This document shows positions 24,265 to 54,631 of a stretch of DNA of 64,000 nucleotides, in pieces. Positions within the stretch are counted from its first letter, which is position 1; each line of letters begins with the position of its first letter. The notes beneath the pieces are model-generated. The model was not told the origin of the DNA. It saw only the letters and a program-made list of their open reading frames with translations, and ran no database searches. The position numbers and the translations under genes were made by a program. This stretch comes from Acidobacteriota bacterium (GTDB lineage Bacteria > Acidobacteriota > UBA6911 > RPQK01 > JBOGJG01): the NCBI GenBank assembly GCA_050747825.1, contig JBOGJG010000300.1:17479-81478 (forward strand). Direction: 5' to 3'.

Positions 24265-24320
24265 TCTGTGAAATCCGTGGCCCATCTATGTTGGTGTATT
24301 TGTGAAATCGTGTGCTAAGT
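24265..24320. repeat. Family B repeat, partial copy (tgtgaaatccgtggccc) plus a degenerate direct repeat
   Basis: It matches the ccacggatttcacgg / ccgtgaaatccgtgg arms seen at 41346, 47128, 57074 and 61770. Confidence 0.4.
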
Positions 24321-26558
24321 TATTGGGCATTCATGCCAAAAGCTTTTCCTCCAGTCGGCCGAAATGCGGCTTTTCTCCTGTCCATGACCGCCTTATTGGC
24401 GCTTTTGGCCATGGATGCGCTGGGGGCGAGTTTTCAGATCCGCCGCCCTCCTCCCGCGCAGCCAGGGAATAGCGCCGAGATTCATGGGCTTGTAAGTGCC
24501 GAAGCGGGAACGCCGATTGCCGGTGCGGTCGTCACTGTAATGCATCAGGAGAGCGGAGAAAGGTCGGGAGTCGTCACCGGACCGGACGGCCTGTATTTGA
24601 TTGCAAGCCTTGCGCCGGGGATGTACGAGTTGACAGTCGAGCGTGAACCTTTCGGCTCAGCGTCACTCCCAGAGGTCGCATTGGAGGCAGGAGAGCGATT
24701 GGAGATCAATCTGCAACTAAAACCATCCGGTTCAGAGATTCTCCAGAGAAGACTGCGCCGGCCCGGTGAAGACGCTTCCCCGGCGGGAGAGCTGGAATCG
24801 GAGCTCCCGGAAGCTCCTGTCCCTTCACCGGCTATTCGCAGGCCTGGTGAACCGGCAGAGCCATCTCAAAGGCCGACCGATGCAGTCACGGCAAGACCAC
24901 CGGAATTCGAGCCGCTGGGGCATGCGGGAGCGGCCCATCAGACCTCGAATGTGCCCGCCACGGAAGATTTCATTCCCATCTCCGACCGCTGGCGAATAGG
25001 CCTGCCTCCATGGGATCGCTATGCCCCATATGGAGGAGATTATCCCTATGTCCGCGGAAGAACTCTGGATCCCTACAACCAGAACGTCCTGAAGGGCGAT
25101 TATCCGATCTTGGGCGATGACTGGTTCGTAGTATTATCTGCTACCAGCGACACCATTGCAGAATACCGGCGCGTGCCCACCGTGGGTCCTCCCAGCGCGG
25201 CCCGCCCCAACGAGCCGGCTTTCTTCAGCCGGGGCGACCAGTTTCAGTTTTTCGAAAACATCATTTTTACCGCCGAGCTGTTTCGAGGCTACACCTCCTT
25301 CAAGCCTTTTGACCTGCAGTTTCGCGTCACGCCGGCTTTTAGCGCCAATTTTCTGCAGGCCCGGGAAACGGGCCTCGTCAATATCGATGTTAGAAGAGGC
25401 ACCACGCGCTGGGATTACCACCCCGCGCTGCAGGAAGCGTTTGCAGAAATCCGGCTGGCTGAAACCAGCCCCTTCTTCGACTTCGTTTCCGTGAGGGTGG
25501 GAACCCAGTTCTTTAACAGCGATTTCCGCGGATTTATTTTCTTTGACAATCAGCCGGGGCTTCGTCTTTTCGGCAACCTCAAAGCCAACAAGCATCAGTA
25601 CAACCTTGGGTACTTCTATCTTCTCGAGAAGGACACCAACAGCCTGCTGAATAAATTCGAGGAACGGCGGCAGGAGGTTTTCGTCGCCAATTACTACATC
25701 CAGGACTTCGTAAAGCTCGGCTACACAACCGAATTCAGCGTGCATGTCAATCACGACAAGCCCGATTTTCACATGGACAACAACGGTTTCCTGGTCCGGC
25801 CGGCCCAGGTCGGAAACGTCGTCCCCAAGAGCGTGAACGCAGTTTACCTGGGGTGGAGCGGAGACGGCCACTTCCGCACCCTGAACATCAATCATGCTTT
25901 TTACCAGGTGCTCGGCCAGGAAAAGCCCAATCAAATCGCGGGCGATGTTTTCGGCCCCAGGGACACGGATATCAACGCGCACATGGTTGCCCTCGAGCTT
26001 TCCGTCGATCGGGATTGGAAGCGCTATAAGGGCTCGTTTTTTTATGCCTCGGGAGACGATAACATTTCGGATGGCCGCGCTCGCGGATTTGACACCATTG
26101 TGGACAATATGAACTTCGCGGGTGGGCCGCTGAGCCTGTGGAATCGGCAGAGCGTCCGGCTAACCGGAACCGCCGTTGGCCTGATGCCTCGATTCAGCCT
26201 TCTTCCCAGCCTGCGCAGCGCCAAAGAGGAAGGCCAGGCCAACTTTGTCAATCCGGGTTTGCTGCTCTTCAATGCGGGTATGGATGCAGAGCTGACTCCC
26301 AGGCTGAGGACCTCGATCAACGCCAATCTGATGTGGTTCTCTCACACGGAGGTGCTGGAGGCGCTGCTCTTTCAGTCCGAGATCGGGCGCTTTATAGGTA
26401 CGGACGTCAGTCTGGGAGCCAGATGGCGCCCCTTTCTAAATAACAACATTATTGTGAACCTGGGCGTGGCCGGACTGATCCCGGGAGGCGGTTTCAAGGA
26501 CGTTTATAGTTCTAAGGCGCTTTTATCGACGTTTCTGGATTTGAGATTGACGTACTGA
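24312..26558 (+). CDS. Secreted/outer-membrane protein: N-terminal carboxypeptidase-regulatory-like domain plus a large probable beta-barrel or beta-rich domain
   Basis: Signal peptide. ...GLVSAEAGTPIAGAVVTVMHQESGERSGVVTGPDGLYLIASLAPGMYELTVE is a CarboxypepD_reg-like domain. The rest has alternating amphipathic beta-strand-like segments rich in aromatics. Confidence 0.4.
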   Translation: MLSYWAFMPKAFPPVGRNAAFLLSMTALLALLAMDALGASFQIRRPPPAQPGNSAEIHGLVSAEAGTPIAGAVVTVMHQESGERSGVVTGPDGLYLIASLAPGMYELTVEREPFGSASLPEVALEAGERLEINLQLKPSGSEILQRRLRRPGEDASPAGELESELPEAPVPSPAIRRPGEPAEPSQRPTDAVTARPPEFEPLGHAGAAHQTSNVPATEDFIPISDRWRIGLPPWDRYAPYGGDYPYVRGRTLDPYNQNVLKGDYPILGDDWFVVLSATSDTIAEYRRVPTVGPPSAARPNEPAFFSRGDQFQFFENIIFTAELFRGYTSFKPFDLQFRVTPAFSANFLQARETGLVNIDVRRGTTRWDYHPALQEAFAEIRLAETSPFFDFVSVRVGTQFFNSDFRGFIFFDNQPGLRLFGNLKANKHQYNLGYFYLLEKDTNSLLNKFEERRQEVFVANYYIQDFVKLGYTTEFSVHVNHDKPDFHMDNNGFLVRPAQVGNVVPKSVNAVYLGWSGDGHFRTLNINHAFYQVLGQEKPNQIAGDVFGPRDTDINAHMVALELSVDRDWKRYKGSFFYASGDDNISDGRARGFDTIVDNMNFAGGPLSLWNRQSVRLTGTAVGLMPRFSLLPSLRSAKEEGQANFVNPGLLLFNAGMDAELTPRLRTSINANLMWFSHTEVLEALLFQSEIGRFIGTDVSLGARWRPFLNNNIIVNLGVAGLIPGGGFKDVYSSKALLSTFLDLRLTY

Positions 26559-26597
26559 GCGGTTGTTGGTTTCTTAGTTTCTTGGTTTCGGTGCCCT

Positions 26598-29500
26598 ATG
26601 AGAAAAGTAGCAGCTTTGATGATGCTGACCTCGGCGGCAGTGCTGGCAGGGTTTTACCCCAGCGCCGAGCGACTCGAGGGAGAGTCCTGGACGGAGCAGC
26701 CGTATAAAACCTGGGATGAGATTCGCCAGCCTGTCGATGTGTCAAAAACGCTGCTTTCGCAGCCGCCCGAAGAGGCGCAGCGTAAGAGCGCCGGTTGTAT
26801 CTCCGCCGGCTGCCACACCAGTGTGGAGCCCATGCATGTTTCCGAAAGTGTGCGCCTGGGCTGCACCGACTGTCACGGTGGAAATGCGGATGCGATAGAA
26901 AAGGCCAGGGCGCACGTGCTCCCCACAAATACGGAAGTCTTCGGTTCCAGCGCCAATCCGGTCCGCGCTTACACGGCCTGGCTGCGTGAGAGTCCGGAGT
27001 TCGTACGTTTCGTGAATCCGGGAGACTTGAGAGTGCTGGATCAAACCTGTGGGACGGCCGGTTGTCATCAGGACATTTCCTTTAAGGTCCGTAAGAGCAT
27101 GATGACCCATGGAGGAATGCTCTGGGGCGCAGCACTTTATAACAATGGAGCCTACCCGCTCAAAGACACTCCTTTCGGCGAGAGTTATGCCATTGACGGG
27201 ACTCCTCAGCGCATCCAGACGATTCCCCCTCCGACTCCGCAGGAAACCCACGATCAGGGGATAATTCCTTATCTGGATCCCCTGGCCCAATGGGGGATCT
27301 CCCAACCCGGAAATGTACTGCGCGTCTTCGAACGAGGGGGCAAGGAATTGATCGAGATCGGGATTCCGGATATCGAGGCGGAGGCCGGTCTTCCGGATAA
27401 GGGACTGAGCATCCGCGGGTTCGGCACTTTAAATCGCACCGATCCTGTCGTTCTCGGGCTGCAGAAGACTCGGCTCATGGATCCGCTCCTGCATATGCCT
27501 GGGACGAACGACCATCCGGGAGATTACCGGGCCAGTGGCTGCACGGCCTGTCACGTGGTCTATGCCAACGATCGGTCGCCCGCCCATTCGGGACCCTATG
27601 CCCGGTTTGGAAACGGCGGGATGTCGGTGACATCCGATCCCACAATTCCCAGGGATGAAGCCGGGCACCCCATACGCCACCGGCTCACTCGCTCCATTCC
27701 CTCCAGTCAATGCATGGTTTGCCACATGCACCCGGGTACCAACATGCTGACCACCTATTTCGGTTACACGTGGTGGGACAATGAGACTGACGGCAATCAC
27801 ATGTATCCGGTGCACGAGAGGAACCTGTCCGCTGAAGAGATCGATCGAATCGAAAGGGCGAATCCCGAGGGTTCGGCCGTCAAAGGTCTTTGGTCTGACC
27901 CGGAGTTTCTCAAGAATCTGACTGACCTGAATCCCCGCCTCAAGCACGTTCAATTTGCCGACTTCCATGGCCACGGGTGGGTGTACCGGGCCGTTTTCAA
28001 GCGGGATCGAAAAGGCAATCTCCTGGACAGTGAAGGCCGGATCGTCTCCTTTGATGATCCCGGCAAGTTCGAGAAAGCCGTGCATCTGAAGGACATCCAT
28101 CTGGAAAAAGGCATGCACTGTGTGGATTGCCATTTCGAGCAGGATGTGCACGGCAGCGGCAAGCTTTACAATGAACCCAGAGCAGCCATTGAGATCGACT
28201 GCATCGACTGCCACGGCAGCATTTACGAGCGGGCCAGTCTAAAGACCAGCAGTTTTGCCGCGCCTCCGGGAGGTCACGATCTGAGCGTTCTTCGGACCCC
28301 CTGGGGACGCAAGCGCTTCGAGGTGCAGGCCGAGAAGATAATCCAGCGGTCCATGGTGGTCGAAGATCTGGAGTGGGAGATCGACCAGGTCCTGGATACG
28401 ATCTCGCCGCAATCGCCCTCCTACAATGAAAAATCCCGCCGGGCAAAAACGCTGCAAAAGGATGGAAAAACCTGGGGCGGCGCACTGGATGAAGATACTC
28501 TGGCCCATTCTAATTCCAGCATGACCTGCTACGCCTGCCATTCTTCCTGGATGACGAGTTGCTTTGGCTGCCATCTATCGATGCAGGCAAACAAGATGAA
28601 AACGATGCTGCACAATGAGGGGACGATCACACGCAACTGGACTTCCTACAATTATCAGGTGCTGCGCAGCGATGTTTTCATGCTGGGAGTGGATGGGACA
28701 GTATCTGCCCACCGGGTCGCTCCGGTACGGTCCAGCAGCGCGGTTGTGGTGAGCTCTCAAACGGGAAACAGAGAGTGGGTTTACCAGACCCAGCAGACCG
28801 TGTCCGCCGAAGGATACAGCGGTCAGGCATTCTCGACACACGTCCCTCACACCGTCCGCAGCAGGGAAACCAAGGGCTGCACCGACTGTCATGTGTCCAC
28901 AGAGAACGACAATAACGCCATCATGGCTCAGCTTCTGCTCCTGGGGACTAACTACACCAATTTTATGGGGCGCTATGTCTACGTGGGAGAAAGAGAGAAC
29001 GGTTTCGAAGCAGTAGCTATTGCCGAGCGGGAGGAACCCCAGGCGGTCATCGGCAGCTACCTGCACCGATTAGCTTACCCGAGCAAGTATGAAAAGCACG
29101 AAGAGGCGCATCACGAGCTGAAAGAGGCTTATCATCACCACGGGAAGGATATTTTGAGCGTGCAGCTTCGGGGCGAATATCTATACACGGCCAACGGACC
29201 GGAAGGGCTGGAGATTTTCGACGTGGCCCAGATTGATCACAAAGGCTTTTCCGAGCGGATGGTCACCGCTCCAGTCTCCCCCCTGGGACAGCGCTTCTAC
29301 GTTCGAAGCAAATACGCGACGGCCGTGGCTTCGCCTTCTACTCTGGCAGTCGATCCCGCGCGCACCCAGCGGCCTGAAAACGACGAGCAGGCGATCGCTC
29401 CGATTTATGCTTATATTTTCTTCACCGATAAGTATGAAGGATTGATCCTGGTCAATGCGGCCACGCTTCTGGATGGAGATCCCACCAACAACTTTCTGGA

Positions 29501-30278
29501 GCGGGCGCTCACCTACAATCCTGATGGACTTCTGGATGGAGCCGTCAATCTGGCCATTGCCGGAAATCACGTTTATGTGACATGCGACCGCGGCCTGGTG
29601 ATTCTCAATTTCAAGGATCCACTGAAGCCGACCATTACGTCGGTCATTGGAGAGCCTTTCATCAAGAAACCCCGGTCGGTCGCGATTCAGTTCCGTTACG
29701 CCTTCCTAGCCGATTCCGAGGGCATCAAGGTCGTCGATGTGACCCTACCCGAAAAATCGCATCCAGTAGAAACAGGAAAATTCTTGCTCGAGGATGCGCG
29801 CGACATCTATATCGCCAGAACATACGCTTATATTGCAGCGGGCAAGCAGGGCCTGGTCATCCTGGACGTCGAACGTCCCGAATTTCCGCGCCACTTTCTG
29901 ACCTATAACGCTGAAGGCGAAATAAACGACGCCTGGCAGGTGAAGCTTGCCATGAGCAACGCCAGCTCGTTCGCTTATATCGCAGACGGCAAGAACGGGC
30001 TGCGCGTCCTTCAAATAACCTCACCGGAAAAAACCCCAGGGTTATTTGGCTACAGTCCGGAGCCCTCCCCGGAACTCATCGCCACCTATCACACTCATGG
30101 CCCCGCGGTGGCGGTAGCGAAGGGATTAGACCGCGATCGAGCCGTGGACGAGAGCGGAAACCAAATAGCGGTGTTTGGCCGGCGCGGCGCCCGCCCCTTC
30201 AACTTCCAGGAAATGCAGCGGCTGTATCTAAAGCAGGGCAAGGTCTACCAGGTAACAGATGAACTGCCCAGGAAATAG
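26598..30278 (+). CDS. Large multihaem c-type cytochrome (8 CxxCH plus 2 CxxxxCH motifs) fused to a C-terminal LVIVD-repeat beta-propeller
   Basis: Signal peptide. The motifs are CISAGCH, CTDCH, CGTAGCH, CTACH, CMVCH, CVDCH, CIDCH, CYACH, CFGCH and CTDCH. The C-terminal 450 aa carry repeated GL.I.DV / GLVIL.. motifs (LVIVD repeats). Confidence 0.8.
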   Translation: MRKVAALMMLTSAAVLAGFYPSAERLEGESWTEQPYKTWDEIRQPVDVSKTLLSQPPEEAQRKSAGCISAGCHTSVEPMHVSESVRLGCTDCHGGNADAIEKARAHVLPTNTEVFGSSANPVRAYTAWLRESPEFVRFVNPGDLRVLDQTCGTAGCHQDISFKVRKSMMTHGGMLWGAALYNNGAYPLKDTPFGESYAIDGTPQRIQTIPPPTPQETHDQGIIPYLDPLAQWGISQPGNVLRVFERGGKELIEIGIPDIEAEAGLPDKGLSIRGFGTLNRTDPVVLGLQKTRLMDPLLHMPGTNDHPGDYRASGCTACHVVYANDRSPAHSGPYARFGNGGMSVTSDPTIPRDEAGHPIRHRLTRSIPSSQCMVCHMHPGTNMLTTYFGYTWWDNETDGNHMYPVHERNLSAEEIDRIERANPEGSAVKGLWSDPEFLKNLTDLNPRLKHVQFADFHGHGWVYRAVFKRDRKGNLLDSEGRIVSFDDPGKFEKAVHLKDIHLEKGMHCVDCHFEQDVHGSGKLYNEPRAAIEIDCIDCHGSIYERASLKTSSFAAPPGGHDLSVLRTPWGRKRFEVQAEKIIQRSMVVEDLEWEIDQVLDTISPQSPSYNEKSRRAKTLQKDGKTWGGALDEDTLAHSNSSMTCYACHSSWMTSCFGCHLSMQANKMKTMLHNEGTITRNWTSYNYQVLRSDVFMLGVDGTVSAHRVAPVRSSSAVVVSSQTGNREWVYQTQQTVSAEGYSGQAFSTHVPHTVRSRETKGCTDCHVSTENDNNAIMAQLLLLGTNYTNFMGRYVYVGERENGFEAVAIAEREEPQAVIGSYLHRLAYPSKYEKHEEAHHELKEAYHHHGKDILSVQLRGEYLYTANGPEGLEIFDVAQIDHKGFSERMVTAPVSPLGQRFYVRSKYATAVASPSTLAVDPARTQRPENDEQAIAPIYAYIFFTDKYEGLILVNAATLLDGDPTNNFLERALTYNPDGLLDGAVNLAIAGNHVYVTCDRGLVILNFKDPLKPTITSVIGEPFIKKPRSVAIQFRYAFLADSEGIKVVDVTLPEKSHPVETGKFLLEDARDIYIARTYAYIAAGKQGLVILDVERPEFPRHFLTYNAEGEINDAWQVKLAMSNASSFAYIADGKNGLRVLQITSPEKTPGLFGYSPEPSPELIATYHTHGPAVAVAKGLDRDRAVDESGNQIAVFGRRGARPFNFQEMQRLYLKQGKVYQVTDELPRK

Positions 30279-30316
30279 AGGGACGTTCAATTTTGCAGGT
30301 GAACGTCCCTCTATTT
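30275..30316. terminator. Palindromic bidirectional terminator (atagagggacgttcaattttgcaggtgaacgtccctctattt)
   Basis: A perfect 14-bp stem between convergent cytochrome genes. Confidence 0.55.
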
Positions 30317-30321
30317 AGTCT

Positions 30322-31596
30322 CTACAAGACTTGCTGGATTTTGGCGAGTTGGGTGGCGAATTCGGAAGGGCTGTAACGTGAGGTGGATTGGAGCCACTCA
30401 TAGAGACGCGCGATTTGGGCGTCCAATAGTTCGTTTGTCTTTCCGGTGTTCTCTCTCCAGGACCTGAAAAGAGCATCCACACTCATGGTCGCCTGCTCGG
30501 CTGAGCGGATTCCTGATTGTGCGATGTTCTGGGCGTCGCCTGAAATGGCTCTCATGATCTGAAGCGCCATCGGCTCACCCAGGTTTGCGGCCTGCCATTG
30601 TGAGATCAGCGAATCCGTCAGATCGGCAAGCTGACGGGCCGTGCGGGCGATCTGGAGCCGGTTATCCGCCGGCTGCTGGAGGTGCTGTTTCAAGTTTTCC
30701 ACGAGCTGTTCCAACTGTTGTCTTTGTCCGCCCGAAATGGCGGTTACCGCATGGCGAAAGACGATATAGCGCGAAGGATTCCAGGGTGGGATTCCAGCGA
30801 TGCCCTTATACCCTCGGGCCTGCCGTTCGCTGGGAAGGACGAGGTTATGGTGGCAGGCGAAACATTCGAAATCCGCAAAATCAGGCCAACCCGCCCAGGA
30901 GGGCTGTTCCACTCGATGGGCCAACTGCTCCATGGACTCTCGCAGCGACACGGCCTGGCCGATGGCCCAGCGACGCAGGCCCTGCCAATCTCCTTCAGGC
31001 TCGTCCCAGTGACGGGGCATCAGGGCGCTAAACGTGTCCAACTCAAAGACCAGGTCGGGATGGCCTGCCGCAATCAGTTGGTGATTGACCGTTTTCTCCT
31101 GGTTTCCCAGGTGGCAGGACAGGCAGGTATCGGCGCGCACATCGAAATCTCTAGTGTCGTTCATTCCGGCACTGAGCGACTGCTGATGCGTCCAGTCGCG
31201 AGTGGTATGAGGTCCCAGCCATTGGGAGGCGGGTCCGTGACAACTTTCACAACCGACTCCGTCGGAAATCTCAAAGGTGCGCGCCTGGCGCTGCTGCGGC
31301 GCATTAGTGGTATGGCAGTCCAGGCACAGTGTTGCCGTGTGCGGCTCAGAAATTCCCAAGTTGCGAGCGATCTGCTGGGAGCGGGGCTCCAACAGCACTG
31401 CATAAGCTTTTGCATGCCCATCCTTAGTGGACCAGATTTGGTATTCGTTCTGCTTGATCCGGCCGCCGGTTCTGGGCCACACGCTTCCATGGCAATTACT
31501 GGAGGCGCAGGATCCTGCCCCGGTGAAATTCACCTGGTCCTGAGGAGATAAAAGAAGAAATCCGGCCAGCGCGATGGGAAGCAGCATTACCGCCAT
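30322..31596 (-). CDS. Multihaem c-type cytochrome (4 CxxCH plus 1 CxxxxCH)
   Basis: The motifs are CASSNCH, CLDCH, CESCH, CLSCH and CFACH, with a signal peptide. Confidence 0.8.
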   Translation of the reverse strand: MAVMLLPIALAGFLLLSPQDQVNFTGAGSCASSNCHGSVWPRTGGRIKQNEYQIWSTKDGHAKAYAVLLEPRSQQIARNLGISEPHTATLCLDCHTTNAPQQRQARTFEISDGVGCESCHGPASQWLGPHTTRDWTHQQSLSAGMNDTRDFDVRADTCLSCHLGNQEKTVNHQLIAAGHPDLVFELDTFSALMPRHWDEPEGDWQGLRRWAIGQAVSLRESMEQLAHRVEQPSWAGWPDFADFECFACHHNLVLPSERQARGYKGIAGIPPWNPSRYIVFRHAVTAISGGQRQQLEQLVENLKQHLQQPADNRLQIARTARQLADLTDSLISQWQAANLGEPMALQIMRAISGDAQNIAQSGIRSAEQATMSVDALFRSWRENTGKTNELLDAQIARLYEWLQSTSRYSPSEFATQLAKIQQVL

Positions 31597-31730
31597 GGAT
31601 CAAGGCAAAATATAACCGCCGTACAGGAGTAAGTCAAACTCCAAGATTTCACCCTTACCGGACACGAGAATTGCTATAATCCCGCCTACGAAGTAAACAC
31701 TTCGAAGTAAACACTTCGTGGCTTTTTTGC

Positions 31731-33404
31731 ATGATCATTCACGAACTACGGACGATTCAGGATCAGTTTGGCTACCTGCCGCGAGAGGAGCTAAAGAGGC
31801 TTTCTCAGAAGATCAATGTGCCGCTGTATGAGCTTCATGGAGTGGCCAGTTTCTTTCCCCACTTCCGGCTGGTGCGCCCGCCTGCAGTGGACATCGGCGT
31901 CTGCATGGATATGCCCTGCCATCTCCATGGCTGCGCTGGTCTGAAGAAGCAGATCGATCAAGCGGCGCAGGAAAGCAAACTTGACGTGGAGGTGCGGCCG
32001 GTCTCCTGTCTGGGACAGTGCGACCGGGCACCGGCCGTAGCTGTAAACGATCATATTTTTGCGCATCAATCCCCTCGGGAGACGCTGGCGGTTGTGACCG
32101 CTGCTTTGAAGGGCGCCAAGCTGGAGCATCAATCCTTTGGGGGGGGCGCCAGGCGCCATGCAGCCGATCCATACGACGGCGAGGGCGCGTACGGAGTAGT
32201 CAAAGATCTTCTCCAGTCGCAGGATTTCGAAGGCGTGCTGGAAAAGCTGAAATCGGCCAATCTAAGAGGGATGGGCGGAGCGGGCTTCCCTACCGGAGTG
32301 AAATGGGAGCTGGTTCGGAAGGCTGAGGGCGATGAGAAATATGTGGTCTGTAATGCCGACGAGAGTGAAGTTGGGACCATCAAAGATCGCGAGATCATGA
32401 AGGATCTTCCCCACCTTCTGGTCGAAGGGATGATCATCGCTGGACTGGTCACGGGCGCTCGCAAGGGCATCATCTATATCCGTCACGAATATCATGAGCA
32501 GGAAGAAGTACTGCGGGAGGAAATCATTCGAGCCAGGCACGCCCGTCTCGTGGGAGATGGACTCCTGGGCTCGAACCACACCTTCCATCTGGAAATTTTC
32601 GTCAGTCCGGGTGGCTACATCTGCGGCGAGGAAAGCGCTCTCTTGGAAGCCCTTGAGGGAAAGCGGGCCCAGCCGCGCAATAAGCCTCCTTTTCCGGTCA
32701 CTCAGGGCCTTTGGAACAAGCCCACTGTCATTAATAACGTTGAGACGTTCATTTATGTGCCACTGATCCTGAAAAGAGGCCCGGAATGGTTCCAATCCAG
32801 AGGGCGGAACGGGATTCCCGGGCTCAAGTTTGTGGGCGTCAGCGGCCACGTGAACAATCCGGGCGTCTTCGAGGTTGCGATGGGGACGCCTATTTCTGAA
32901 GTGATTTACGACCATGCCGGAGGAATCAGCCAGGGGAGGCGGATGAAAGCCTTTGCCCCTTCCGGGGCTTCCTCGGGTTTTCTCCCCGCCTCCATGGCGG
33001 ATGTCCCCATGGATTTCCAGAGCCTGGCTAAAGCCGGTTCAATGATGGGTTCGGGGGCGATAGTAGTGGCTGCTGAAGGGACCTGCCTTCTGGATCTGGC
33101 GCTAAATGCCGTCCGCTTCTTTCGCAACGAATCATGCGGAAAGTGTGTTCCCTGCCGGGTGGGCTCGCAAAAGCTGGTTGACATTCTCTTCCGGATCTCT
33201 CAGGAAGGCGGCACAAGAGAAGACCTTGAGGTGATTGAGCGTATGGCCGATACCCTGATGATGACTTCGATTTGTGGTCTGGGTCAGGTGGTCCCCAAGC
33301 CGATTACTTCCGTTATCCAGCATTTCCCCGGGGAAATCGAAGATCACATTGTAAATCAGACGTGCCCTTCGGGAGTGTGTTTTAGCGAGAGGAAAACAGG
33401 GTGA
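31731..33404 (+). CDS. NAD(H)-binding flavoprotein: fused NuoE-like [2Fe-2S] thioredoxin-like domain plus NuoF/HoxF-like FMN and [4Fe-4S] subunit
   Basis: The N-terminus has a C...C....C...C 2Fe-2S pattern (CMDMPC...CLGQC). GMGGAGFPTGVKW is the NADH-binding loop. ...ESCGKCVPCRVG is the N3 cluster. Confidence 0.85.
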   Translation: MIIHELRTIQDQFGYLPREELKRLSQKINVPLYELHGVASFFPHFRLVRPPAVDIGVCMDMPCHLHGCAGLKKQIDQAAQESKLDVEVRPVSCLGQCDRAPAVAVNDHIFAHQSPRETLAVVTAALKGAKLEHQSFGGGARRHAADPYDGEGAYGVVKDLLQSQDFEGVLEKLKSANLRGMGGAGFPTGVKWELVRKAEGDEKYVVCNADESEVGTIKDREIMKDLPHLLVEGMIIAGLVTGARKGIIYIRHEYHEQEEVLREEIIRARHARLVGDGLLGSNHTFHLEIFVSPGGYICGEESALLEALEGKRAQPRNKPPFPVTQGLWNKPTVINNVETFIYVPLILKRGPEWFQSRGRNGIPGLKFVGVSGHVNNPGVFEVAMGTPISEVIYDHAGGISQGRRMKAFAPSGASSGFLPASMADVPMDFQSLAKAGSMMGSGAIVVAAEGTCLLDLALNAVRFFRNESCGKCVPCRVGSQKLVDILFRISQEGGTREDLEVIERMADTLMMTSICGLGQVVPKPITSVIQHFPGEIEDHIVNQTCPSGVCFSERKTG

Positions 33405-35575
33405 GCGACGCAGGGAAGATCAATCTGACCATCGACGGAGTGCAGGTCAGCGCCAGCCCCGGCGCCACGATTTGGGAAGCCGCTCGCTCTGCCGGAATCG
33501 AAATCCCTGTTCTTTGCCACCAGTCCAATCTCGATCCCGTGGGTGTTTGCCGGGTGTGCGCGGTCGAAGTCCAGGGAGCCCGGGTTTATGCAGCCGCCTG
33601 CGTGCGCGCTGTCGAAAACGGGATGGTCGTCTCTACCGGTAATGCGCGATTGGAACAGTCCAGAAAAACGCTGATCGAGCTGCTGCTGTCAGACCATCCG
33701 GCTCCCTGTGCCCGCCACCAGAAATTCGGCGATTGCGAGTTGGAAGTCCTGGCCGAAAAGACTGGGGTCACTCAGCCCGCTTTTAACTCGCGGACGGCAT
33801 CCAAAGGGGCTGACGTTTCCAACCTCAGTATCTCCGTTGACCACAGCGCCTGCATCGTTTGCGATCGCTGTGTGCGGGCTTGCACGGACCTTAAGCACAA
33901 CAATGTAATCGGCCGTATGGGCAAGGGATATCTCACCAGCATTTCCTTTGATGATGACCGGCCTATGGGGGAGTCGAGCTGCGTCAATTGTGGAGAATGC
34001 ATGGTTTCCTGTCCCACCGGAGCGCTGACGTCCGGTGAAATGGTGGGGACCAGAATGGATTCCGGCGATGTGCTCAGTCCCGAAGATCTCTTGCGCTATC
34101 CCATCTTTGCGGGTATCTCCAGCGCATTTCTGGCACGAAATACCGGAGGCATAGTCAGGCGCCATTATCGAAAAGGCGAAATCATCTGCCGCGAAGGAGA
34201 ATACGGGTCCACGGCGTTTTATATCCTGCAGGGCCAGGTGGATGTTTTTCTGGGCACCAGTGTCGCCCACGTCGCCAAGCGAAGAGATTCCGGCATGGGT
34301 TGGTTCAAGAAGATGACCAGCGTACTGGTGTCCCGTACGGAAGATCCGCGGAGCGGCGAAAAGAGACAGAGCTATATTCCTATTGACGCTCCGGTTGATC
34401 TTTCCTACGATCGGCCGGTCGCGCAACTGGGCGAGGGCGACCTGTTCGGGGAGATGACCTGTCTGAACTTCTATCCCCGATCGGCGACGGTGCGCGCTGC
34501 TGAAGACTGCATCGTCCTCGAGATGCTGCGCAACGTCCTTCAGATCCTCCAGAAAAACCGCGATTTCCAGGCCCATATGGAAGAGGTCTACAGGAAGCGC
34601 GCCCTGGATAATCACCTGCGCAGCGTTCCCATCTTTCAAAACCTCCCGTCGGATTTTCTGGAATATCTAAGAGATCGCGTACAACTGAAGCGGTTTGAGG
34701 CAGGAGAGGTCATCTGCCGGCAGGGAGAGCCGGCGGATGCCTTCTATCTGGTGCGGATTGGGCACGTGAAGGTTTCTCAAGCTCGCCCTGGAGGTGAAAT
34801 GGTCCTGGCTTACCTGGCTAAGGGCCTGTACTTTGGCGAGATTGGTCTTCTGGCGAGAGGCGAGAGGACGGCCACCTGCACGGCGCTCGATCACGTGGAG
34901 GTTGTAAAAATCTCGCAGCGGGAATTCGACCAGATGCTGTCGCAATTTCCGGATATTCAGACCGAGCTCCAAAGAGTGGCCGGCCAGCGCCTGGAGTCCA
35001 ATGAAAAGCAGAGCGAAATGCTGAAGACGGTACCGCTGGATGATTTCCTGTCCCAGGGTTTGATGCAAGCTCAGAATCTCCTTGTTCTGGACCTGGAGAG
35101 TTGCGTGCGCTGTGATGATTGCGTGCGCGCCTGTGGCGCCGCTCACGACGGGTTTACCCGCCTGGTTCGCGAGGGCCTTCGCTTCGATAAATACCTGGTG
35201 GCTACATCCTGCCGGCAATGTAGAGATCCGCTCTGCATGGTCGGTTGTCCGGTGGGAAGCATACGGCGCCAGGATTCTCTGGAAATCATCATCGAGGATT
35301 GGTGTATCGGATGCGGCTTGTGCGCGCAGCAATGCCCTTACGGGAATATCAACCTGCATGAGTTTCCGGTCCGCGAGAGGAACCCGGAAACGGGAGCGTT
35401 CGAAACCGTTCTTAAGAAGAAGGCCACAGTCTGTGACCTTTGCACCGATCACAAGGAGCCAAGCTGCGTCTACGCCTGCCCGCACAATGCGGCTCATCGT
35501 GTAGACCCCCGGACATTCTTCGATCTGCAGCTCCAGCCGACCGGCTTGGCTTCTAAGGAGCCGAGCTCATCGTGA
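33401..35575 (+). CDS. HoxU/NuoG-N-terminal-like Fe-S protein with two inserted cNMP-binding domains and a C-terminal 2x[4Fe-4S] ferredoxin module
   Basis: The N-terminal 215 aa have a 2Fe-2S motif (CHQ...CRVCAVEV), then HP..C...C (His-ligated cluster), then CIVCDRCVRAC and CVNCGECMVSCP. Two cNMP domains follow: ...GEIICREGEYGSTAFYILQG...FGEM....RSATVRA and ...GEVICRQGEPADAFYLVRIG...FGEIGLL...RTATCTA. The C-terminal Cys motifs are CVRCDDCVRAC, CRQCRDPLCMVGCP, CIGCGLCAQQCP and CDLCTD....CVYACP. Confidence 0.8.
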   Translation: MSDAGKINLTIDGVQVSASPGATIWEAARSAGIEIPVLCHQSNLDPVGVCRVCAVEVQGARVYAAACVRAVENGMVVSTGNARLEQSRKTLIELLLSDHPAPCARHQKFGDCELEVLAEKTGVTQPAFNSRTASKGADVSNLSISVDHSACIVCDRCVRACTDLKHNNVIGRMGKGYLTSISFDDDRPMGESSCVNCGECMVSCPTGALTSGEMVGTRMDSGDVLSPEDLLRYPIFAGISSAFLARNTGGIVRRHYRKGEIICREGEYGSTAFYILQGQVDVFLGTSVAHVAKRRDSGMGWFKKMTSVLVSRTEDPRSGEKRQSYIPIDAPVDLSYDRPVAQLGEGDLFGEMTCLNFYPRSATVRAAEDCIVLEMLRNVLQILQKNRDFQAHMEEVYRKRALDNHLRSVPIFQNLPSDFLEYLRDRVQLKRFEAGEVICRQGEPADAFYLVRIGHVKVSQARPGGEMVLAYLAKGLYFGEIGLLARGERTATCTALDHVEVVKISQREFDQMLSQFPDIQTELQRVAGQRLESNEKQSEMLKTVPLDDFLSQGLMQAQNLLVLDLESCVRCDDCVRACGAAHDGFTRLVREGLRFDKYLVATSCRQCRDPLCMVGCPVGSIRRQDSLEIIIEDWCIGCGLCAQQCPYGNINLHEFPVRERNPETGAFETVLKKKATVCDLCTDHKEPSCVYACPHNAAHRVDPRTFFDLQLQPTGLASKEPSSS

Positions 35576-36483
35576 TTATCGATCGAAGCAATAAGCCCTG
35601 GATCGTGGCCAGCATCGTCATTTTCCTGGTTTCGGCAGTACTCTACATCCCTTACAGCATCTACGCCATCCCGGCGCCTTCGGGCGGAAGCTGGCCTGGC
35701 TTGATTTACGCCTTTCTCGGCACAGGCATGATGCTCTTTGCGCTGCTGCTGGGTTTACGGAAAAAGTACCCAACTCTGCGAGTGGGAAGGCTGCACGCCT
35801 GGATGAAAGGACATGTCTGGCTTGGACTCTTGAGCTTTCCCATTATTCTCTTTCACGCGGGATTTGCTCTGGGCGGGCCGCTCACGACGGTGTTAATGGT
35901 TTTGTTCGGTATCGTCGTTTTCAGCGGCCTCTTCGGGATCGTTCTTCAGCAGTATATTCCTGGTCTGATGACAGAGCAGATTTCGATGGAAACGATTTTC
36001 GAGCAGGTGGATGACATTCTGGCTCAGCTCCGCCAGGAAGCGGATGCATTCGTGCAGGCCGCCTTATCGCGCGAATCCGAAGAGCCTTTTGTCATGGAGG
36101 CACTGGGAGGAGGGACCGAGTCTCCACTGGCGCGCAACCGCTACTCGAGTGATCAGTCGGAACTGAGCAGAGGCCGGCGCGTCTTGGACGACTTTTATCA
36201 GCGTGAAGTCCGGCCGTTTCTTCACGATCAGGCCGGACCGGACAGCCGATTCGCCTCCGAGCAGAAGTCCAACGTTGTCTTTGAACAGATGCGAAAAGTG
36301 CTCCCCGGCTCGTTTCACGAAACACTGGCCTCTCTGGCCGATATCGTGGAAGAGAGACGGCAACTGGCGCGCCAGGTGAAGCTGCATTATCTTCTTCACG
36401 GCTGGCTCTTCATACACGTCCCCCTGTCTATGGCGCTGATGGGGCTGGCGGCAGTTCATGCGGTCATAGCACTCAGGTACTGA
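35572..36483 (+). CDS. Integral membrane protein (about 5 TM) with conserved His in TM helices; candidate b-type haem membrane anchor
   Basis: Hydrophobic helices. His residues in helices include GHVWLGLL, ILFHAGF and HYLLHGWLFIHVP. 4-bp overlaps on both sides (operon). Confidence 0.45.
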   Translation: MIIDRSNKPWIVASIVIFLVSAVLYIPYSIYAIPAPSGGSWPGLIYAFLGTGMMLFALLLGLRKKYPTLRVGRLHAWMKGHVWLGLLSFPIILFHAGFALGGPLTTVLMVLFGIVVFSGLFGIVLQQYIPGLMTEQISMETIFEQVDDILAQLRQEADAFVQAALSRESEEPFVMEALGGGTESPLARNRYSSDQSELSRGRRVLDDFYQREVRPFLHDQAGPDSRFASEQKSNVVFEQMRKVLPGSFHETLASLADIVEERRQLARQVKLHYLLHGWLFIHVPLSMALMGLAAVHAVIALRY

Positions 36484-36487
36484 GCAG

Positions 36488-37831
36488 ATGGCGCGAAAGG
36501 GAAAAACCACCAAGCAGCTTGCCAAGCGCATCGACATCAACTACTTCAAGCGGCTGCACCCGTTTCGCCGGAAAAAGCGGTATGCAAGCTATGTGGCCCT
36601 GGCACTAGCTGCGGCGTGGCTCATCGCAAGCGCTCTGGTGGGGGACGAAGGCGTTTTCAATCCCGGACCTGTCTCACGCCCCCACGCCTTTATTGAGGAA
36701 GACTGCTCCTTTTGCCATACCGGAGCCGAGGAGAACCGCTTTCTTCACCCCGTTACCGATGGGGCCTGCCAGAGCTGCCATGCCGGCCCGCTTCATCACC
36801 GCAATCAGGTCTTTGCCGGACATACGGGAAGCCAGCCCTCCTGCGGCAGTTGTCACCAGGAACATCAGGGACGCTCGGCTGACCTGGTTTTTATGCAGGA
36901 CAAGAACTGCCTGCAGTGCCACCGTTCCCTCCAGGTGGACGAGACACTCGTTGCTGCATCCAGTCCGGATTTGCCTGAATTCCTGGCGCGGCCTCCGCAA
37001 GGTTACGCCCGGGCCATCTCCAGCTTCGAGAGTGATCACCCGGAATTCCGTTTCATTCGCGACCAGATGGAAGATCCTGCGCAGATTAAGCTCAATCACC
37101 AGGTGCACCTGAGGCCGGACCTGCCCGCTCCCGAAGGTCCGGTTCAACTCGAATGCCAGTCGTGCCATAGAATCGATGCTCAGGGGGCTTATATGGAGCC
37201 GGTCAATTTCGAACGGGACTGCCAGTCCTGTCATCCCCTGGCTTTTGACGAACGGATTTTTGAAGAAGCGCCACATGAGGACCCTGAATTTGCGGAGGCT
37301 TTTGTCCGCACGGCTTTTTCCAAGTACGCCGGTGAGCATCCTGATGAATGGCGCCGGCCCTCGGACTGGCATCCGGCGCGCAATCTCTCCAGCCTCAGAA
37401 GAATGGTCGAAGAGGCTCCTCGAGATCTCCCGGACTGGCTGGAAAGAGAAGTTGGGAAGGCGCGCCAGCTCCTGTTTTCCCAAAAATGCCAGGAGTGCCA
37501 CGTCATGCAGGACCTGCAGCAGGAGGTCCCTGCAGTTGTCCAGCCTCGCATTCCAGATCGATTCCTCGGCCACAGCCGTTTTGATCACCAGGCACATCGA
37601 ATGCTCGAGTGTTCGTCCTGCCACGAACAGGCGCTTCAAAGCAGTCGAACCGAAGACATTCTCATTCCCGGCCGGGAGGACTGCCTGCACTGCCACAACA
37701 CTTCCACTGGAGCCCCGGCTGAGTGTGTAACTTGTCACGCTTATCACTCACAGACCAAAAATTACCAGCCAGGACGTCTCAGGATCAACGATATCGTCGG
37801 TGGGTCACAGCAAGGAGAATCACGTGAATGA
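36488..37831 (+). CDS. Membrane-anchored decahaem c-type cytochrome
   Basis: One N-terminal TM helix. Ten CxxCH motifs (CSFCH, CQSCH, CGSCH, CLQCH, CQSCH, CQSCH, CQECH, CSSCH, CLHCH, CVTCH). Confidence 0.8.
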   Translation: MARKGKTTKQLAKRIDINYFKRLHPFRRKKRYASYVALALAAAWLIASALVGDEGVFNPGPVSRPHAFIEEDCSFCHTGAEENRFLHPVTDGACQSCHAGPLHHRNQVFAGHTGSQPSCGSCHQEHQGRSADLVFMQDKNCLQCHRSLQVDETLVAASSPDLPEFLARPPQGYARAISSFESDHPEFRFIRDQMEDPAQIKLNHQVHLRPDLPAPEGPVQLECQSCHRIDAQGAYMEPVNFERDCQSCHPLAFDERIFEEAPHEDPEFAEAFVRTAFSKYAGEHPDEWRRPSDWHPARNLSSLRRMVEEAPRDLPDWLEREVGKARQLLFSQKCQECHVMQDLQQEVPAVVQPRIPDRFLGHSRFDHQAHRMLECSSCHEQALQSSRTEDILIPGREDCLHCHNTSTGAPAECVTCHAYHSQTKNYQPGRLRINDIVGGSQQGESRE

Positions 37832-38633
37832 AAAGCAGCCGTTGAGAGGTCAGAAGGCCCTGGTAACGGGGTCGAGTTCGGGAATAGGTAAGGCCATCGC
37901 TAAATCTCTCGCATTTGCAGGAGCTTCGGTCGTAGTAAACTCCCGCAGCCAGCCGGATAAAGGCGCGCGGCTGGCCCAAGAAATTTGCGAGGCAGGAGGA
38001 GAGGGCATTCATATCCAGGCCGACGTCGGCCGGGAGGACGAGGTCAAGACTCTCTTTCGCAAAATGCTGGATGAGTTCGGGACGATTGACATTCTCGTCA
38101 ATAACGCCGGGCTGCAACGCGACGCGAATCTGGTGGATATGACCCTGGAGCAATGGAATACCGTCCTTTCGACCAATCTCACCAGTCAGTTTCTCTGTGC
38201 TCGTGAGGCCGTCAAGGAATTCCAGCGCCGGGGTGTTGTCCCTTCGATCTCAAGAGCGGCTGGGAAAATCATCTGTATCAGTTCGGTGCACGAGATCATT
38301 CCATGGGCTGGACACAGCAACTATGCGGCTTCAAAGGGGGGTGTGATGCTCTTTATGAAGAGCATCGCCCAGGAACTGGCGCCTCACAAGATCCGCGTCA
38401 ACAGCATCGCCCCGGGCGCGATTAAGACTCCCATCAATCGGGAGGCCTGGGAGACGCCTGAGGCTGAACGGGCTCTGCTCAAGCTGGTTCCCTATCAGAG
38501 GGTTGGAGACCCGGAAGACATCGGCTCAGCGGCGGTCTGGCTGGCTTCCGACGACTCCGACTACGTTACCGGAACCAGCTTGATCGTAGACGGAGGCGCG
38601 TGTCTCTATCCCGAATTTGCTCACGGAGGCTGA
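37823..38633 (+). CDS. Short-chain dehydrogenase/reductase (glucose-1-dehydrogenase-like)
   Basis: TGSSSGIGKAIA is the Rossmann motif. NNAG and YAASK form the catalytic Tyr-x3-Lys motif. The GTG start is taken just inside the stop of the upstream cytochrome. Confidence 0.8.
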
Positions 38634-54348: not shown

Positions 54349-54631
54349 AAACTCCCTCCTCGACAATTCAAGTTGTTCAAATCGAATTACAAAATAAGCC
54401 GCGGGTGGTAAGGCACCCGGAGACGATATATGCAATCTCAGTACCTATTCTTTGGAGAGCTCGCTGAGTCGCGCTGGTTTAACGGTAAAGCTCCAAGAGT
54501 GCCGCCGTTTTTCGCCTGAGTCTCCCGATGAGCCAAGGGACGTGCGCTTGTCCAAAATTCCGAACTTTGCGCTTCTGGAATACAGGTTTTTGAACTTGAA
54601 TAAGAGACTAATAGGTGAACGGCGATGACCC

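Follow-up and report, generated by a model that had tools for sequence, protein, structure and literature searches.

The 64-kb window analysed here (the whole stretch of DNA, 64,000 nucleotides from an Acidobacteriota bacterium) carries a cluster of genes for redox proteins, labelled g0 to g9, with coordinates given as positions in this window. At its core, the genes g4 to g7 encode a NuoE-NuoF flavoprotein, an iron-sulfur (Fe-S) protein with two cyclic nucleotide-binding (CNB) domains, a His-rich membrane protein and a decahaem cytochrome c, which together would carry electrons from cytoplasmic NADH to c-type cytochromes beyond the cytoplasmic membrane. The gene content was established by listing of open reading frames (ORFs), translation, motif counting and scans against Pfam and NCBIfam. 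The GC content is even along the window (54-60%), the tRNA scan detected no tRNA genes in it, and an Rfam scan of 21-42 kb gave no matches. The features of the cluster are the following.

21676-23346, minus strand: g0, secreted protein of 556 amino acids (aa) with two HbpS-like domains (PF03928/DUF336)
24312-26558 (likelier start 24384), plus strand: g1, signal peptide, CarboxypepD_reg domain and outer-membrane barrel
26598-30278, plus strand: g2, exported cytochrome c of 1226 aa with 10 haem motifs and C-terminal LVIVD repeats
30277-30312: hairpin with a 13-bp stem between the convergent genes g2 and g3
30322-31596, minus strand: g3, exported pentahaem cytochrome, divergent from g4
31672-31718, plus strand: putative control region of the g4 operon, from sequence inspection
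31731-33404, plus strand: g4, cytoplasmic NuoE-NuoF fusion flavoprotein
33401-35575, plus strand: g5, cytoplasmic Fe-S protein of 724 aa with two CNB domains
35572-36483, plus strand: g6, inner-membrane protein of 303 aa with five transmembrane (TM) helices, His-rich
36488-37831, plus strand: g7, decahaem cytochrome c with one N-terminal TM helix
37824-38633, plus strand: g8, short-chain dehydrogenase/reductase (SDR) resembling glucose 1-dehydrogenase
38643-41294, plus strand: g9, cytoplasmic GH63/MGH1-like glycoside hydrolase (PF22422, E 7e-24)

An earlier note, made from the sequence alone, had described the interval 24312-38633 as one electron-transfer module linking NAD(H) to multihaem cytochromes. 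The genes that it listed there were all recovered with the content that it gave them (ORFs, motif counts, Pfam and NCBIfam matches), and the profile searches that it proposed matched the expected NuoE/NuoF, Fer2_4, NADH-G_4Fe-4S_3, cNMP_binding, cytochrome and LVIVD families, with no match for g6. Its list is incomplete, since the conserved gene g0 (21676-23346) lies outside this interval. The single tight operon that it deduced from three overlaps of 4 bp stands in part: 4-bp GTGA overlaps occur at only two junctions, g4/g5 and g5/g6, and g6 is separated from g7 by 4 nt, while the gene order is kept in 72 to 78 of 80 related loci.

The protein encoded by g4 matches PF01257, PF01512, PF10531 (SLBB) and PF10589, all over their cutoffs. 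Its NuoE-type [2Fe-2S] domain (PF01257, 83.9 bits for a cutoff of 24.8) displays in the translation the cysteines C58-x4-C63 and C93-x3-C97, and the domains that hold flavin mononucleotide (FMN) and NADH, on one hand, and the N3 [4Fe-4S] cluster, on the other hand, score 145.5 bits (PF01512) and 95 bits (PF10589). The motifs GGAGFPTG (FMN), ADESEVGT and CGKCVPC (N3 cysteines) are kept; the presence of both Glu residues of ADESE is the pattern of the NADH-preferring complex I enzymes. Among the PDB sequences, g4 matches HydB of an NiFe-hydrogenase (E 2.5e-117), NuoF/Nqo1 (E 1e-101) and, over its full length, the beta subunit, itself NuoE-NuoF-like, of a tungsten formate dehydrogenase (FDH; 7e5z_B). 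The score against TIGR01959 (nuoF_fam) is 463 bits, under the equivalog cutoff of 558.65, and g4 is therefore a member of the NuoF family that is not an orthologue of the complex I subunit. Unlike HydB, it terminates directly after the N3 cluster, and it contains no extra domains of the bifurcation type.

The protein encoded by g5 is composed of a HoxU/HydA-N-like part (residues 1-215), two CNB domains (about 235-525) and a module for four [4Fe-4S] clusters (about 560-700). Pfam recognises in it Fer2_4, NADH-G_4Fe-4S_3, Fer4, cNMP_binding (E 2e-39) and, towards the C-terminus, further Fer4 domains. In the PDB, the stretch 7-212 finds its counterparts in the N-terminal modules of HydA, FDH-alpha and NuoG (E down to 4e-43), and residues 1-215 also resemble the Fe-S module of HoxU. 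An alignment of 120 homologues was used to follow the conservation of the cluster ligands. The [2Fe-2S] ligands C39, C50, C53 and C67 and the two ferredoxin-type [4Fe-4S] sites (C151/154/157/161 and C194/197/200/204) are invariant. At the site of the His-ligated [4Fe-4S] cluster (window 33695-33736, residues 99-112), the residues H99, C103 and C112 are also invariant, and position 106, the second Cys of the motif H-x3-C-x2-C-x5-C, is occupied by Gln in 77% of the sequences and by Glu or His in the others. PF10588 reaches just 27.7 bits on g5 for a cutoff of 27, and the cluster may be unusually ligated, or its site altered.

The two CNB domains of g5 (PF00027, 133.7 bits), the first of which is interrupted by an insert, match the protein kinase A regulatory subunit 5j3u (E 2e-22). 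Their phosphate-binding cassettes are intact (FGEM..RSA and FGEI..RTA, in FGEMTCLNFYPRSA and FGEIGLLARGERTA). The C-terminal cysteines are arranged in the four groups C568/571/574/578, C604/607/612/616, C635/638/641/645 and C678/681/689/693; 15 of these 16 residues are invariant, and C681 is Cys in 115 homologues and Ser in five. The C-terminal 174 aa match the PDB sequences of HycB4 and HycB3 from the hydrogen-dependent CO2 reductase, HycB from formate hydrogenlyase (E 8e-15 to 3e-13 for these three), ArrB, NrfC, FdnH and NarH. 'Wire' subunits of the HycB, FdnH or NarH type usually dock on membrane anchors. Homologues with the full architecture of g5 number 6,106 at E <= 1e-30, the top 120 being 61-70% identical across 96-100% of the length, and they are annotated merely as "cyclic nucleotide-binding domain-containing protein".

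The window protein g6 has no match in Pfam or NCBIfam. Four of its His residues are invariant in 24 homologues (45-59% identity), H81 and H95 on TM3, H282 and H296 on TM5, the members of each pair being 14 residues apart. In an AlphaFold2 (AF2) model (predicted local distance difference test, pLDDT, 75.9), four TM helices make up the N-terminal part; a cytoplasmic helical domain of about 130 aa comes next, and the long helix TM5 closes the chain. From the basic residues at the N-terminus and in the 64-71 loop and from the AF2 helix boundaries, both TM3 and TM5 would run from cytoplasm to periplasm, and this orientation would place H81/H282 near the inner face of the membrane and H95/H296 near the outer one. 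As modelled, this layout is the bis-His geometry of cytochrome b, the ferric-reductase domains and their relatives. A lax scan of 24 members of the family recovered DUF4405 in six, Ferric_reduct in five and Ni_hydr_CYTB in four, all below threshold (best E 3e-4); these three recurring families are all di-haem b families. The AF2 model may also resemble CybB, cytochrome b561, the TM domain of NOX5 and FdnI. Haem b binding has been demonstrated for DUF4405 proteins, which were proposed as transmembrane electron carriers (PMC11334425). The protein g6 is thus predicted to be a di-haem b cytochrome, on a separate and remote branch of the DUF4405/ferric reductase/cytochrome b561 superfamily, and as such would fit the place in a conduit that the earlier note gave to its His-rich membrane protein.

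The g6 family comprises 873 proteins among the scored candidates of a database clustered at 90% identity, and a profile search recovered 4,084 clusters (50% identity) at E <= 1e-3, 716 of them at E <= 1e-30. Many relatives of g6, P0390 and P0407 among them, are 450-880 aa long, the cytoplasmic loop being extended by 200-550 residues of low-complexity repeats rich in Ala, Pro and Lys, with repeat units such as SPLEQMKAK or SAADKIAMMRAAK. Pfam detected no domain in ten of these long relatives with inserts. No quinone-site motif was identified.

The last protein of the core, g7, contains ten CXXCH motifs behind a basic N-terminus and a TM helix at residues 33-51, which places the haem domain in the periplasm. 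It matches Cytochrome_C7 (E 3e-12), Cytochrom_c3_2 and Paired_CXXCH_1, and ten CXXCH motifs are counted in 68 of 71 homologues. It was also considered as a quinol dehydrogenase of the NapC/NirT/NrfH/CymA type; this candidate was rejected, with no match to Cytochrom_NNT and 25.5 bits against the NrfH model TIGR03153 (cutoff 134).

The distribution of the g6 family was surveyed in a collection with one genome per species, in which at least 478 g6 loci were listed. The locus comparisons concern the best 80 of these, scored by tblastn with the window proteins, and full flanks of 10 kb were available for 49 of them. All 80 come from metagenome-assembled genomes (MAGs), with no cultured carrier among them: 62 Acidobacteriota, 11 Methylomirabilota/Rokubacteria, 2 Binatia, 2 Tepidisphaerales, 1 Limnocylindrales, 1 Verrucomicrobiia and 1 labelled Actinobacteria. 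Homologues of g5 and of g7 are each present in 76 of the 80 loci, g4 in 73, g3 in 54, g1 in 47, g2 in 40, g0 in 34, g9 in 30 and g8 in none. The colinear pairs g4-g5, g5-g6 and g6-g7 occur in 72, 78 and 77 loci, respectively, and the gaps are mostly of a few to about 50 nt (median about 5-10 nt), those between g6 and g7 being mostly of 0-25 nt. This order is observed in Acidobacteriota, Methylomirabilota/Rokubacteria, Binatia, Chloroflexota, Verrucomicrobiia and Planctomycetota, and the architecture is kept at 55-65% identity in at least 70 loci of several phyla. The g4-g7 arrangement is conserved far beyond chance. The co-occurrence of HoxF-like and HoxU-CNB genes with multihaem cytochromes, which the note had proposed to look for, is thus recurrent, and its central observation of a diaphorase encoded together with a membrane protein and a decahaem cytochrome, with no usual catalytic partner, is borne out by these loci.

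The g7 gene is missing from the stored gene calls of both public copies of the contig, NCBI GCA_975374895.1 (CDIKIH010000012.1) and Logan SRR27067772, which have in its place an antisense ORF of 307 aa (36674-37747, minus strand). Considering the ten CXXCH motifs, the Pfam cytochrome matches and the homologues in 76 of 80 loci, the public annotation at this position is probably wrong, and surveys built on it would miss this cytochrome.

Two further cytochromes are encoded upstream of the core. The divergent gene g3 encodes a protein with a cytochrome c554-like N-terminal part (PF13435, Cytochrome_C554, E 3e-13; weak PDB match to Nitrosomonas europaea cytochrome c554, E 7e-5) and a helical C-terminal part of about 170 aa. 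Its haem motifs, four CXXCH and one CX4CH, are found in identical number in 52 of 52 homologues. The larger cytochrome g2 possesses ten motifs (eight CXXCH and two CX4CH) and LVIVD repeats (PF08309, 66.6 bits for a cutoff of 20.2, E 1.2e-18), a region assumed, from the literature on the repeat, to form a beta-propeller. Ten motifs are also counted in 29 of 32 nearly full-length homologues, 27 times as nine CXXCH and one CX4CH and twice as eight and two. The similarity of g2 to a segment of ExtM from Geobacter is weak (84 bits for a cutoff of 800), the comparison with PDB sequences gave no match, and the protein has a Sec signal peptide without lipobox Cys. The haem counts first proposed for g2 and g3 (ten with LVIVD repeats, and about five on the opposite strand) and the export signals therefore hold on re-analysis, with conservation in the homologues.

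The gene g1, which g2 always adjoins where it is present (40 of 80 loci), encodes a signal peptide followed by a CarboxypepD_reg domain (PF13620, E 9e-17) and has at least 3,568 homologues. The AF2 model, obtained with an alignment of 54 sequences (pLDDT 75.5), begins with a beta-sandwich, which a disordered linker of about 120 residues connects to an AlgE/OprD-like barrel of 18 strands. According to this model g1 is a genuine outer-membrane protein, which looks like a substrate channel and not like a sheath for a haem wire; its tethered domain might hold a cytochrome. Two large outer-membrane proteins of 1122 and 1150 aa are encoded elsewhere in the window (47202-50570 and 50983-54435, both on the minus strand), each with CarboxypepD_reg and OMP_b-brl_4 (E about 1e-202 for the latter). 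They are typical Acidobacteriota proteins resembling TonB-dependent receptors and have only the type of N-terminal domain in common with g1.

The secreted protein g0 starts with the signal-like sequence VSRLSLVLALCILVAAPTLA followed by QD and matches the HbpS-like family of Pfam over two stretches (E 1.6e-26). It was the commonest extra family when the remaining ORFs of the 80 loci were clustered: its homologues (about 50% identity) in Acidobacteriota, Rokubacteria and Limnocylindrales are usually encoded beside g1. HbpS, the founder of the family, belongs to a redox-sensing system of Streptomyces. As a conserved accessory of the cluster, g0 could serve in haem handling, redox sensing or protection. 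Among the loci with full flanks, 40 of 49 contain g0, g1 or g2, and 41 contain g3.

On the other side of the core, g8 begins best at GTG 37824, six nt past AAGGAG, and then overlaps g7 by 8 nt, so that it is probably co-transcribed with the module in the window. It matches adh_short_C2 (E 9e-65) and the NCBIfam glucose 1-dehydrogenase NF005559 (248 bits for a cutoff of 215). This SDR had been counted as a member of the unit; it is rejected as such, with a homologue in none of the 80 related loci. The hydrolase g9 is found in 30 of the 62 Acidobacteriota loci (for example L028 1907-4585 and L033 12416-15100). It follows g3 in 25 loci, g2 in two and g7-g8 in the window. The conservation of this linkage through three gene orders suggests a functional link with the cluster and not a chance synteny.

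Other genes recur near the module. Genes for class III adenylate/guanylate cyclases with a CHASE2 domain adjoin it in 16 loci; in many cases they come straight behind g7, and some are accompanied by a gene for a FecR-domain protein (for example L025 12226-14592 and L062 19410-20912, both on the minus strand). The window contains no CHASE2 cyclase; it encodes an MscS-like channel with a cNMP-binding domain (19898-21388, minus strand) about 300 bp from g0. Glucose-6-phosphate dehydrogenase is encoded beside the module in 14-15 loci, and an SthA-like transhydrogenase with the motif CxxxxT in 12 loci and in the window (17583-19001, plus strand), and transketolase genes flank g4-g5-g6 in three Planctomycetota loci; examples of these enzymes, which produce or interconvert NAD(P)H and recur in different phyla, are L075 18435-19970, L081 2929-4335 and L085 2608-4515 and 9989-11391. 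The other recurrent neighbours are a TrkA-type K+ channel and lineage-specific genes unrelated to hydrogen or formate. By Pfam, no catalytic hydrogenase, FDH or molybdopterin subunit and no complex I Q or P module is present among the 20 recurrent neighbour families of the 80 loci or in the flanks of the window.

Concerning the control elements, a promoter and terminator scan of 23-42 kb gave counts no higher than in shuffled sequence and was uninformative except for a good sigma-70-like promoter of g3 (31637-31609, 10 of 12 positions matching). The hairpin between g2 and g3 (AGAGGGACGTTCA-N10-TGAACGTCCCTCT) is likely a bidirectional terminator. Upstream of g4, an extended -10-like sequence TGCTATAAT is followed by two exact tandem copies of CGAAGTAAACACTT, a 14-mer that is found nowhere else in the window. 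Each copy together with the next CG forms the palindrome CGAAGT-N4-ACTTCG, and a T-run follows the repeats, 13 nt before the ATG of g4 at 31731. These repeats could be a putative operator or leader hairpin.

Taken together, these data lead us to consider, with moderate confidence, that the locus would encode a modular redox chain from cytoplasmic NADH to c-type cytochromes beyond the cytoplasmic membrane, in which the quinone pool would be bypassed and the flow regulated by cyclic nucleotides. NADH would reduce the FMN of g4, and the electrons would pass along the Fe-S clusters of g4 and then through the HoxU-like N-terminal module of g5. From there they would follow the C-terminal module of g5 with its four [4Fe-4S] clusters, which would dock on the cytoplasmic face of g6. 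The membrane would be crossed by two stacked b haems of g6, with the ligands H81/H282 on the cytoplasmic side and H95/H296 on the periplasmic side, and the electrons would enter the ten haems of the membrane-anchored g7. In most genomes they would continue to the pentahaem g3 and to g2, the latter paired with the barrel g1 and the HbpS-like g0. The final acceptor could be a soluble oxidant passing the barrel, or a surface substrate. The CNB domains, which separate the input from the output Fe-S module within g5, would switch or tune the flow by cAMP or cGMP; regulation of the electron flow is most likely their role.

The direction of this flow is inferred from bioenergetics to be outward. The transfer from NADH (-320 mV) to the haems is downhill and helped by the membrane potential, so that the export dissipates energy and does not conserve it. 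Since the export dissipates the membrane potential and the oxidation of NADH leaves a proton inside, the module cannot conserve energy in the way of complex I; it would rather act as a regulated overflow valve or as a feed line for a reductase. An unregulated valve would drain NADH and the proton-motive force, and the CNB domains of g5 and the cyclase genes at 16 loci make sense in this context. As a hypothesis, the electrons could originate from sugar-derived reducing power, given the neighbouring glucose-6-phosphate dehydrogenase, transketolase, SthA-like enzyme, glucose-1-dehydrogenase-like SDR g8 and GH63/MGH1-like hydrolase.

A more specific proposal, which we put forward tentatively and regard as rather doubtful, is an electron valve gated by cAMP or cGMP, which would be the equivalent in bacteria, built of several subunits, of NADPH oxidase or ferric reductase. 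The binding of cyclic nucleotides would connect or disconnect the NADH module and the g6-type di-haem b proteins, and NAD(P)H from sugar oxidation would be discharged across the membrane on demand, the respiratory chain being bypassed. Iron, humics or oxygen would be reduced in the envelope, yielding Fe(II) or superoxide. The hosts would be soil phyla that are abundant and for the most part aerobic: Acidobacteriota, Rokubacteria, Binatia and some Planctomycetota.

Several observations weigh against the complete chain from NADH to the outer cytochromes. The fourth ligand of the HoxU-like His-ligated cluster is missing throughout the g5 family, unlike in HoxU and NuoG. Five loci (L003, L018, L053, L083 and L084), which include the closest relatives of the g1, g2, g3 and g7 of the window, have no g4 and encode a g5 without its HoxU part. 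This shortened protein of 510 aa starts at the first CNB domain (CNB-CNB-four-cluster; L003 7508-9040, L018 8469-10004, L083 8471-10004), with g0-g3, g6 and g7 still present. In L044 (2962-5644), g4 is directly followed by g6 and g7, without g5; this is a single MAG contig labelled Actinobacteria and is to be taken with caution. Three Planctomycetota loci (L004, L050 and L085), flanked by transketolase genes, contain g4-g5-g6, or the part of it captured by the contig, without a nearby cytochrome. The 18-strand barrel of g1 is by analogy too narrow to sheath a cytochrome, and g2 has no lipobox. Finally, g6 may contain a quinone site.

From the variant loci, the nearly universal elements appear to be g6 and the g5-type Fe-S/CNB protein (76 of 80), and the NADH input and the decahaem output would represent the common form of a system in which both can be exchanged or lost. 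The NAD(H) input of the earlier note is accordingly present in most of the loci (g4 in 73 of 80) and not in all. For the outer-surface leg that it considered possible, the AlgE/OprD-like and not MtrB-like barrel of g1 and the lipobox-free g2 do not support a delivery of electrons to the cell surface.

The first alternative is a coupling to quinone, in which g4-g5-g6 would be a non-pumping NADH:quinone oxidoreductase of the Fdn/Nar kind and g7 a separate cytochrome oxidising quinol; the electrons would then take the way of the quinone pool and not pass directly from haem b to haem c. Where a four-cluster protein sits on a di-haem b subunit, the pair normally works with a quinone or quinol site. 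The C-terminus of g5 matches FdnH and NarH, among others, and the model of g6 may resemble FdnI. The Planctomycetota loci with g4-g5-g6 and no adjacent cytochrome indicate in addition that g6 can work without a neighbouring g7. Against these points, g7 has no NapC/NirT match and reaches 25 bits for the NrfH cutoff of 134, no quinone-site motif was identified, g6 lies by Pfam outside the NarI and FdnI families, and the adjacency of g6 and g7 in 77 of 80 loci, with gaps mostly of 0-25 nt, suggests that both belong to one complex. We consider this coupling unlikely.

We also judge it improbable that two systems are merely often co-located, the inner module g4-g7 being functionally separate from an outer one, g0-g1-g2 with or without g3. 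This outer module would then act as a multihaem enzyme of the periplasm or the outer membrane and would possess a substrate channel of its own. The orientation and the side of g1-g2 vary relative to g4-g7, nine of the 49 loci with full flanks have none of g0, g1 and g2, and g1 resembles substrate channels or polymer exporters rather than MtrB. The linkage nevertheless persists despite rearrangement in Acidobacteriota, Rokubacteria and Limnocylindrales, and the 10-haem g2 needs an electron source or sink, for which g7 and g3 are the obvious partners.

The earlier note had left the direction open, and only the outward half of this claim is favoured. In an inward flow, a periplasmic or extracellular donor would deliver electrons by the cytochromes to g6, g5 and g4 and finally to NAD+, as in a lithotrophic electron uptake. 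The NuoF/HoxFU modules are known to be reversible in NAD+-reducing hydrogenases and FDHs. Such a flow would nonetheless run against the membrane potential and, for most donors, against the NAD+/NADH potential, g4 has no extra domains of the bifurcation type, and the hosts are mostly heterotrophic soil lineages in which the neighbouring genes encode sugar enzymes producing NAD(P)H. It is therefore very unlikely.

A further alternative is a signalling device, in which the Fe-S/CNB protein and the cytochromes would sense the redox state of the envelope or of NADH with no bulk flux. The CNB domain is a classic signalling module, cyclases and cNMP-binding channels are encoded nearby, and the founder of the g0 family is HbpS of the Streptomyces redox-sensing system. 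This explanation is highly improbable, as no component possesses a DNA-binding, kinase or GGDEF output domain and a set of about 35 redox cofactors, with a complete NADH-oxidising flavoprotein among its carriers, would be excessive for a sensor. In the refutation that the note itself had named, the locus would be a degenerate remnant of an NAD-linked hydrogenase or FDH operon deprived of its catalytic subunit. The PDB sequences closest to g4 and to the N-terminal part of g5, which are subunits of such enzymes, would point to it. This remnant is hardly credible in view of the same catalytic-subunit-free architecture kept in at least 70 loci of several phyla at 55-65% identity, of the invariance of all cofactor ligands but one in g5, and of neighbourhoods and window flanks without hydrogenase, FDH or molybdopterin genes.

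No description of this cluster was found in the open full-text literature, in agreement with the note, which did not recognise it as a described system; most subscription journals lie outside this scope, where a prior description is possible. The publications consulted concern canonical complex I, LVIVD adhesins, CymA/CbcL/ImcH and flavinylation-associated cytochromes (PMC9386147, 10.1101/2022.05.06.490989, PMC6295460, 10.1101/197269, PMC6085454, PMC9012536, PMC11334425). The curated libraries Pfam and NCBIfam have no model that covers g6, and they give neither g5 nor g1 a specific name. The elements not found described are the wiring of an NADH-flavoprotein/HoxU-like input to a decahaem cytochrome by a four-cluster module and a new di-haem b family, the CNB domains embedded in an Fe-S subunit, and the wide distribution of the cluster in soil phyla.

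If the proposed chain is correct, abundant and little-understood soil phyla would possess a quinone-independent line from NADH to periplasmic, and possibly outer-envelope, multihaem cytochromes. It would be a new entry to extracellular or periplasmic electron transfer beside CymA, ImcH, CbcL and the flavin-based system of Gram-positive bacteria, and could bear on the reduction of iron, manganese and humics and on the production of reactive oxygen in soils and peat. A new di-haem b family of about 4,000 clusters at 50% identity, all annotated as hypothetical, would be defined as well, and g5 would be the first case that we found of CNB domains in an Fe-S electron-transfer subunit, which suggests an allosteric gating of an electron wire. 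With a four-gene core and clear cofactor predictions, the hypothesis is directly testable.

The input of the chain is comparable to NuoEFG, HoxEFU, HydBC with HydA-N and FdsBG (FDH beta-gamma), g4 being a fusion of NuoE and NuoF and residues 1-215 of g5 carrying one [2Fe-2S] and two [4Fe-4S] sites. In contrast with these systems, the locus lacks a partner of the hydrogenase, FDH or complex I Q-module type, the His-ligated site is one Cys short, and the HoxU-like module continues, in the same polypeptide, into two CNB domains and a four-cluster ferredoxin. The 16-Cys module of g5 is shared with FdnGHI, NarGHI and HybA/HycB/HydN and would likewise sit on the cytoplasmic side of a b-type subunit. 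The differences are the lack of a molybdopterin subunit, another b-type family and, as the proposed periplasmic partner, haem c instead of quinol.

At the outer end, the barrel gene g1 paired with g2, near periplasmic multihaem cytochromes, recalls MtrCAB, PioAB/MtoAB and the Pcc and Ext systems of Geobacter. An MtrCAB-like porin-cytochrome complex is not supported, on the basis of the 18 strands of g1, where 20-26 are needed, and of the lack of an MtrA/DmsE member: g3 scores 19 bits against TIGR03508 (cutoff 192), and g7 gave no match.

The transmembrane logic is the same as in the complexes Hmc, Tmc, Nhc/Ohc and DsrMKJOP of sulfate reducers, where electrons cross the membrane by way of an Fe-S protein in the cytoplasm, a cytochrome b in the membrane and a multihaem cytochrome c in the periplasm, and where quinone is not necessarily used; the C-terminus of g7 has a weak match to TmcA/c3/c7. 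Unlike Hmc, Tmc and Dsr, the present module contains an NADH flavoprotein and a HycB-like wire and not a CCG/HdrD-like protein, and g6 is by Pfam not NarI- or HdrE-like. The hosts are soil Acidobacteriota, Rokubacteria and relatives, and CNB domains are present. Rnf with MmcA in Methanosarcina acetivorans, and Nqr/Rnf-like systems, likewise connect a cytoplasmic low-potential donor by a membrane complex to a multihaem cytochrome outside; their protein families are wholly different, and no Rnf/Nqr, flavinylation or ion-pumping subunits are present here.

Concerning the membrane step, g6 stays under the threshold of every curated di-haem b family. It differs from NOX/FRE/STEAP, MsrQ/YedZ, the PepSY-like proteins, DUF4405 and CybB in that it has five TM helices and, on the cytoplasmic side, a helical insert of about 130 aa (up to about 550 in relatives). 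Its donor would be a multi-cluster Fe-S protein and not a fused FAD (flavin adenine dinucleotide) domain, and its acceptor a decahaem cytochrome. The NOX, FRE and MsrQ systems may nevertheless be regarded, by analogy, as conceptually similar to the g4-g7 module. The building blocks of the chain are all of known kinds, and its principle has precedents.

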